A stretch of 377 bases of DNA from Escherichia coli (GTDB lineage: Bacteria > Pseudomonadota > Gammaproteobacteria > Enterobacterales > Enterobacteriaceae). The notes below the pieces were generated by a model. It was not told where the DNA came from. It saw only the letters and a program-made list of their open reading frames with translations, and did no database searches. Within the stretch, counting starts at the first letter, position 1; the number at the start of each line of letters is the position of its first letter. This document shows positions 1-377 of the stretch, one piece after another. The stretch lies in NCBI RefSeq assembly GCF_003334385.1, contig NZ_QOWN01000187.1; one strand, written 5' to 3'. The translations under genes were made by a program, and so were the position numbers.

Positions 1-377
1 CACGATACCATTGCCAGAGTTGTATCCTGTATCAGTCCTGCAAAATTTCACGAGTGCTTTATTAACTGGATGCGTGATTGTCATTCTTCAGATGATAAAG
101 ACGTCATTGCAATTGATGGAAAAACGCTCCGGCATTCTTATGACAAGAGTCGCCGCAAGGGAGCGATTCATGTCATTAGTGCGTTCTCAACAATGCACAG
201 CCTGGTCATCGGACAGATCAGGACGGATGAGAAACCTAATGAGATCACAGCTATCCCTGAACTTCTTAACATGTTGGATATTAAAGGGAAAATCATCACG
301 ACTGATGCGATGGGTTGCCAGAAAGATATTGCAGAGAAGATACAAAAACAGGGAGGTGATTATTTATTCGCTGTAAA
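1..377 (+). CDS. ISAs1-family DDE transposase (H-repeat-associated protein), internal fragment; 5' and 3' ends lie outside the window
   Basis: Frame +1 (codons at 1-3, 4-6, ...) is open across all 125 complete codons. The translation contains blocks I recognise from E. coli H-repeat/ISAs1 transposases (yhhI/ydcC/ybfD group): [85 protein letters not shown]. The composition is that of a real protein, unlike the R/S/L-rich frame +2 translation. Recognition is from memory, not a database search. No gene symbol is given because several near-identical paralogs exist and 125 residues cannot distinguish them. Confidence 0.88.
1..377 (+). mobile_element. Interior of an ISAs1-family insertion sequence (H-repeat element); terminal inverted repeats and target-site duplications are not in the window
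   Basis: The window is wholly occupied by the transposase ORF. ISAs1-family elements are known to be single-ORF IS elements of roughly 1.2-1.5 kb, so the ends should lie several hundred bp beyond each side. Hand-counted GC is 160/377 (about 42%). Confidence 0.8.

Follow-up and report, generated by a model that had tools for sequence, protein, structure and literature searches.

Does a 377-nucleotide piece of Escherichia coli DNA carry the first two catalytic residues of a DDE transposase and, if so, can such a piece reveal whether the copy from which it comes is intact or decayed? The stretch that raises these questions, referred to below as the window, comprises all 377 nucleotides analysed, and neither the start codon nor the stop codon of the transposase gene is inside it. 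What it encodes, which of its acidic residues are candidates for catalysis, what its nearest relatives look like beyond its borders and how the element is placed in E. coli genomes are taken in turn.

Identity of the window

As judged from its sequence, the window lies inside the transposase gene of ISEc1, the H-repeat, which belongs to the ISAs1 family. A sequence-only reading of the window had seen a single frame free of stops and frameshifts, and translation bears this out: frame 1 runs without a stop through the full 377 nt, 125 codons, and its product corresponds to residues 71-195 of the 378-amino acid ISEc1 transposase. The 125-residue translation scores 180.1 bits (E 5.7e-53) against the NCBIfam equivalog model NF033564, 'ISAs1 family transposase', for which the curated cut-off is 70 bits, with window residues 1-125 falling on profile positions 43-167 of 314. 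At the level of Pfam domains, window residues 1-24 match the last 24 positions of PF13808 (DDE_Tnp_1_assoc; E 2e-4), and residues 32-125 match positions 3-106 of the 200 in PF01609 (DDE_Tnp_1; E 3.2e-15). In a full-length relative that differs by 1 nt, PF13808 is complete (residues 8-94, E 7.6e-34) and PF01609 extends over residues 102-343 (model 3-200, E 4.8e-30). The ISAs1 domain order, PF13808 followed by PF01609, is thus present in the full-length relative and, as partial domains, in the window. The window is divided as follows.

Positions 1-377, plus strand: fragment of the ISEc1 / H-repeat transposase gene, codons 71-195, frame 1
Positions 1-72, plus strand: C-terminal end of the PF13808 domain (model 65-88), from Pfam matches of the fragment and of the full-length relative
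Positions 94-375, plus strand: N-terminal half of the PF01609 catalytic domain (model 3-106 of 200), from Pfam

The sequence is a common one. Of 5426 complete E. coli genomes searched by megablast, 5311 match it, with a median of 4 matching places each; the best matches reach 99.7% identity and bear the annotation 'ISAs1-like element ISEc1 family transposase'. WP_000420722.1, which bears that name, agrees with the window at 376 of 377 nt and 124 of 125 amino acids. Megablast gave no 100% match to the whole window in complete E. coli genomes or plasmids, and a protein search found no protein identical to the 125-residue fragment, with partial proteins only among the matches listed. ISEc1 or the H-repeat and the ISAs1 family have long been catalogued and are named automatically by the NCBI pipeline; to this extent the observation is already known.

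Members of the ISAs1 family include ISAs1 itself from Aeromonas salmonicida, IS1358 from Vibrio cholerae, IS1548 from Streptococcus agalactiae and ISPmar4 from Paracoccus. The element in the window has in common with the family the PF13808 plus PF01609 architecture and the signatures IDGK, KSNEITAIP, DAMGCQ and HWxIENxLHWxLD, although homologues from sources other than E. coli share only 35-54% identity with the ISEc1 protein. Studies with trap plasmids in Paracoccus list other elements of the family among the transposable elements that they identified (PMC3281130).

The catalytic aspartates and the predicted fold

Two aspartates had been proposed from the sequence as the first two residues of a DDE triad, one in VIAIDGKT and the other in KIITTDAMG. 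Their coordinates and contexts are exact: GAT at nt 115-117 is window residue 39, D109 in ISEc1 numbering, and GAT at nt 304-306 is window residue 102, D172. Their conservation was assessed in an alignment of the ISEc1 protein with 125 full-length homologues at 35-54% identity (n=126), the homologues being drawn from 13,173 matches at E ≤ 1e-10 among 1.84 billion cluster representatives. At each of the two positions 125 sequences have D and one has E. G110 and K111, directly after D109, are invariant, and A173, which follows D172, is present in 125. The glutamate that would complete the triad, E306, is invariant (126 of 126) in the motif H-W-x-I/V-E-N-x-L-H-W-x-L-D; in ISEc1 numbering its position is 111 codons beyond the end of the window, and it is present in the nearest relatives. 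Conservation by itself is not decisive because acidic residues are conserved at D72, E151, D314, E319 and D320 as well, and the evidence that decides the catalytic assignment is a structural model.

The model was made with AlphaFold2 for the full-length relative that differs by 1 nt, was built on the homologue alignment and had its secondary structure assigned by DSSP; its mean pLDDT is 95.1 and its pTM 0.92. The order of its elements is β1 (residues 105-113), β2 (126-133), β3 (138-145), α1 (148-161), β4 (168-171), α2 (178-186) and β5 (190-195), followed by a β-rich insertion (221-286) and then helices 292-302 and 304-316. As modelled, this is the order of the RNase H-like DDE topology. The window ends before the β-rich insertion domain and the E306 helix, and the predicted elements and acidic residues within it are as follows, the secondary structure in each case being that given by AlphaFold2 and DSSP.

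Positions 103-129, plus strand: predicted β1 of the RNase H-like core (residues 105-113)
Positions 115-117, plus strand: D109 (GAT, window residue 39), putative first DDE carboxylate, from conservation and its place in predicted β1
Positions 166-225, plus strand: predicted β2-β3 hairpin (residues 126-133 and 138-145)
Positions 232-273, plus strand: predicted α1 (residues 148-161), with the family signature K-S-N-E-I-T-A-I-P known from the alignment
Positions 241-243, plus strand: E151 (GAG), an invariant acidic residue at the N-terminus of predicted α1, outside the canonical DDE triad, from the alignment and the model
Positions 292-303, plus strand: predicted β4 (residues 168-171, K-IITT)
Positions 304-306, plus strand: D172 (GAT, window residue 102), putative second DDE carboxylate, from conservation and its place directly after predicted β4
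Positions 322-375, plus strand: predicted α2 (178-186) and β5 (190-195)

The model puts D109 inside β1, D172 immediately behind the last residue of β4 and E306 at the start of the helix that comes after the insertion domain. The arrangement that marks a DDE enzyme, with a first aspartate on β1 and a second directly after β4, both conserved, is therefore the one predicted here. With a probability of about 90%, D109 and D172 are the first two catalytic DDE residues of the ISEc1 transposase, and the proposal made from sequence emerges well supported by conservation and predicted fold. A literature search found no published DDE positions specific to ISAs1 or ISEc1. What conservation and the predicted fold provide is a documented assignment of the triad to D109, D172 and E306 (ISEc1 numbering).

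The same model bears on a very unlikely alternative, namely that the catalytic carboxylates are other acidic residues, D72 and E151, or that the site is a four-carboxylate D-E-D-D one in the manner of RNase H with E151 as a participant. E151 is present in all 126 sequences and is more conserved than D109 or D172, and D72 is conserved in 118. The N-terminus of α1, where E151 is placed, corresponds in the topology of the fold to the site of catalytic E48 in RNase HI of E. coli. However, the model places D72 away from the RNase H-like core, in a helix (71-79) that belongs to the PF13808 domain at the N-terminus, whereas D109 on β1 and D172 after β4 have the canonical positions, and no DDE transposase or integrase is known whose catalysis depends on the α1 residue. 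If E151 did have an extra role, this would extend the assignment of D109 and D172 and would not replace it.

The comparison with a characterised enzyme was made with the transposase of Tn5 (IS50), a member of the IS4 family for which structures 1MUH, 1MM8 and 4DM0 are available and in which D97, D188 and E326 are catalytic; the Tn5 sequence used was confirmed at 100% identity on plasmids. Searches of PDB sequences for a characterised relative with phmmer and hmmsearch returned chance matches only, for example to CheY and YenC2. With hhalign the ISAs1 alignment was matched to Tn5 at a probability below 1%, both when Tn5 was used alone and when it was represented by a 67-member Tn5-clade profile. 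When core sub-alignments were compared with Tn5 in the same way, the N-terminal part failed, and the C-terminal part put W303-x-I-E306 on Tn5 W323-x-I-E326 with an E-value of 0.079, which is not significant. An alignment to PF01609 had been suggested in the sequence-only reading as the check on which columns hold the catalytic residues. It gives the domain match, and the offsets of the second aspartate and the glutamate agree between the Tn5 and ISEc1 proteins; the first aspartate is left uncovered, as the PF01609 envelope on Tn5 is 125-358 and, because of where it starts, there is no Pfam bridge to D97.

The differences between the two proteins are considerable. Sequence identity is only 9-11%, the two aspartates are 63 residues apart in ISEc1 and 91 in Tn5, the N-terminal DNA-binding domain is PF13808 in one and PF14706 in the other, and ISEc1 is without the dimerisation domain of Tn5. 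The surroundings of E306 are R300-x-H302-W303-x-I/V-E306, with L313 and D314 where Tn5 has K333, so that the Y-R-E-K signature of Tn5 is replaced in ISEc1 by R-x-H-W-x-I-E ... D314. Membership of the IS4 family was considered and rejected, given that hhalign probability and the absence of the signature Y-(2)-R-(3)-E-(6)-K. On the evidence of the model, the ISEc1 protein is Tn5-like by fold and is outside the IS4 family proper.

The chemistry of the DDE superfamily is textbook material. By extension from the DDE/RNase H superfamily, D109 and D172 together with E306 would hold two Mg2+ ions, which would activate water for the nicks at the transposon ends, and the exposed 3′-OH would then be activated for strand transfer. 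The predicted β-rich insertion between β5 and the helix bearing the glutamate is Tn5-like and may signify a cut-and-paste pathway via a DNA hairpin. As modelled, the ISEc1 protein is a DDE transposase by homology of fold, and it is from this that we infer its chemistry and pathway.

Intact and decayed copies

Four E. coli copies match the window at every position but nt 235. All of them keep D109, D172 and E306, and their full-length genes are as follows.

L001 and L012: intact 378-amino acid ORFs, identical to each other
L010: intact ORF with W311R; 122 of 126 homologues have W here
L011 (strain PigCaeca_1): a stop, Q18*, that precedes the window by 53 codons; a ybfL-type pseudogene at an RhsC-like locus

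The sequence-only reading had concluded, from the open window and its two aspartates, that the copy is at least locally compatible with an active transposase rather than a decayed pseudogene. That the copy is not decayed cannot be concluded from the window: L011 has the same window except for nt 235 and has a stop upstream of it. A 377-nt open window cannot distinguish an intact from a pseudogenised H-repeat because near-identical copies include both.

The window has one difference of its own, which was overlooked in its first reading.

Positions 235-237, plus strand: CCT, encoding Pro, for the TCT of Ser149; the sole difference from the nearest copies

At nt 235 the window has C and all of the 99.7%-identical copies have T, with S149P as the consequence in the window. 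Position 149 is Ser in 113 of the 126 aligned sequences and Pro in none, with T, E, A, G, K and I also occurring, and it is between near-invariant K148 and N150/E151 in the first turn of predicted α1 (KSNEITAIP). A 41-nt megablast probe, for which seeding is possible only across nt 235, detected one other copy with C235 among the 5426 E. coli genomes; this more diverged copy, L002 (strain JX2), has an internal stop and a pseudogene annotation. A search of genome-contig and metagenome-contig collections for an exact 64-nt pattern that takes in nt 235 found 0 matches. T235C could be a sequencing error. The region of the fold at the start of α1 is occupied by E92 in HIV integrase and by E48 in RNase HI, and by analogy with such RNase H-fold enzymes the start of α1, including S149, would border the active or metal site. 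S149P can accordingly be flagged as one private substitution beside the active-site region.

That the copy in the window is a dead H-repeat, a pseudogene or a catalytically impaired gene, by virtue of a lesion outside the window or of S149P inside it, is a substantial possibility judged to fall somewhat short of an even chance. Of the four copies with the same window except for nt 235, L011 has Q18* and L010 has W311R at its W-conserved position, and C235 was detected in just one further E. coli copy, which is annotated as a pseudogene. Proline is never found at position 149, between its near-invariant neighbours, some copies have a degenerate right inverted repeat, and H-repeat transposition has not been observed, according to one genome paper (PMC3032704). 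Against this, L001 and L012, 99.7% identical in the window, are intact 378-amino acid ORFs, the low dN/dS among copies shows that the frame has been maintained, and position 149 accepts six other residues in homologues. A helix can, in addition, usually accommodate proline in its first turn.

Among four E. coli copies (L001 3791-4927 versus L002, L010 and L011) dN/dS is 0.06-0.11, and the transposase frame has therefore been under purifying selection; the range includes two same-locus copies beside yafV, with a dS of 0.135. Four N-terminal changes, Q18*, R20W, D28G and C35F, are common to L002 and L011. Sequence comparison suggests gene conversion between H-repeat copies.

A different and unlikely reading of the persistence of the protein is that it is a host-retained DDE enzyme at Rhs/T6SS loci and not a selfish transposase, perhaps one that shuffles Rhs toxin tips, with a fourth catalytic carboxylate at E151 as a variant of the same idea. 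It is put forward because the ORF is in 98% of E. coli, dN/dS is about 0.1 with same-locus copies included, and the element has reportedly never been seen transposing. If the enzyme were host-retained, or if E151 were catalytic, the neighbouring S149P would be functionally meaningful.

In ISEc1 a second frame, +1, overlaps the transposase frame and has 136 codons free of stops (window nt 2-376); the +1 ORF has 134 codons (window nt 11-376) with an ATG start in L001 (3972-4376). It is extremely unlikely that this ORF is a real overlapping gene, with local conservation due to it instead of to the transposase frame. In shuffles of synonymous codons the +1 frame averages 54-55 codons (SD 16-17), and 136 codons were reached in 0 of 5000 shuffles in one run and in 3 of 1000 (P=0.003) in another, so the opening is unusual. 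But in 6 homologues with 42-54% protein identity the longest +1 ORFs, of 37-184 codons, are elsewhere and are within what the shuffles lead one to expect. Furthermore, between two E. coli copies 16 nt differences cause 14 amino acid changes in the +1 frame and 3 in the transposase frame, and the +1 product is therefore unconstrained. The ORF was rejected as a gene on these two grounds, its lack of conservation in the 6 diverged homologues and its lack of constraint, and the opening is most likely due to chance.

Element ends and genomic setting

The best match to the window is the 378-codon ORF for WP_000420722.1, which has an Hcp gene, an Rhs core fragment and a small ORF on its upstream side and 'RHS element protein dsORF-h1' on its downstream side. 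This locus is a classical H-repeat of Rhs elements, and the nearest ISEc1 / H-repeat copies in general are downstream of Rhs core or tip genes and adjoin Hcp or T6SS genes. The K-12 paralogues of the H-repeat ORF are yhhI, ydcC, ybfL and ybfD.

In the 4 copies compared the element is 1290-1291 bp long. Its left end, CAGGGAAAGA, is 143-144 nt before the ATG and its right end, TCTTTCCCTG, comes directly after the stop codon. Over their first 10 bp the inverted repeats (CAGGG...) are perfect in L011 and match at 9 of 10 positions in L001, and they are degenerate (CGGGG...) in L010 and L002. No direct repeat indicative of target-site duplication was found in the 12-nt flanks of L001. In the two copies beside yafV the right repeat is TAATACCCCG (L010 3428-3437) and TCTTACCCCG (L002 2214-2223), instead of TCTTTCCCTG; these yafV-adjoining copies are probably immobile even with an open ORF.

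At the RhsC-like locus of L011 (2091-2160 and 3428-3460) a full ybfL-type H-repeat starts exactly where an upstream ybfQ fragment breaks off, and the junction is at the position equivalent to window nt 27 (in the stretch that corresponds to window nt 1-27). The right end of the ybfL-type copy abuts a third copy, ybfD, which apparently is without about its first 23 nt. This nesting or tandem arrangement of H-repeats may reflect earlier insertion or recombination at the locus. The G+C content of the ISEc1 gene (L001 3791-4927) is about 41%, the E. coli average being about 51%, and such a low value is in keeping with the AT-rich portion of Rhs elements that was acquired horizontally.
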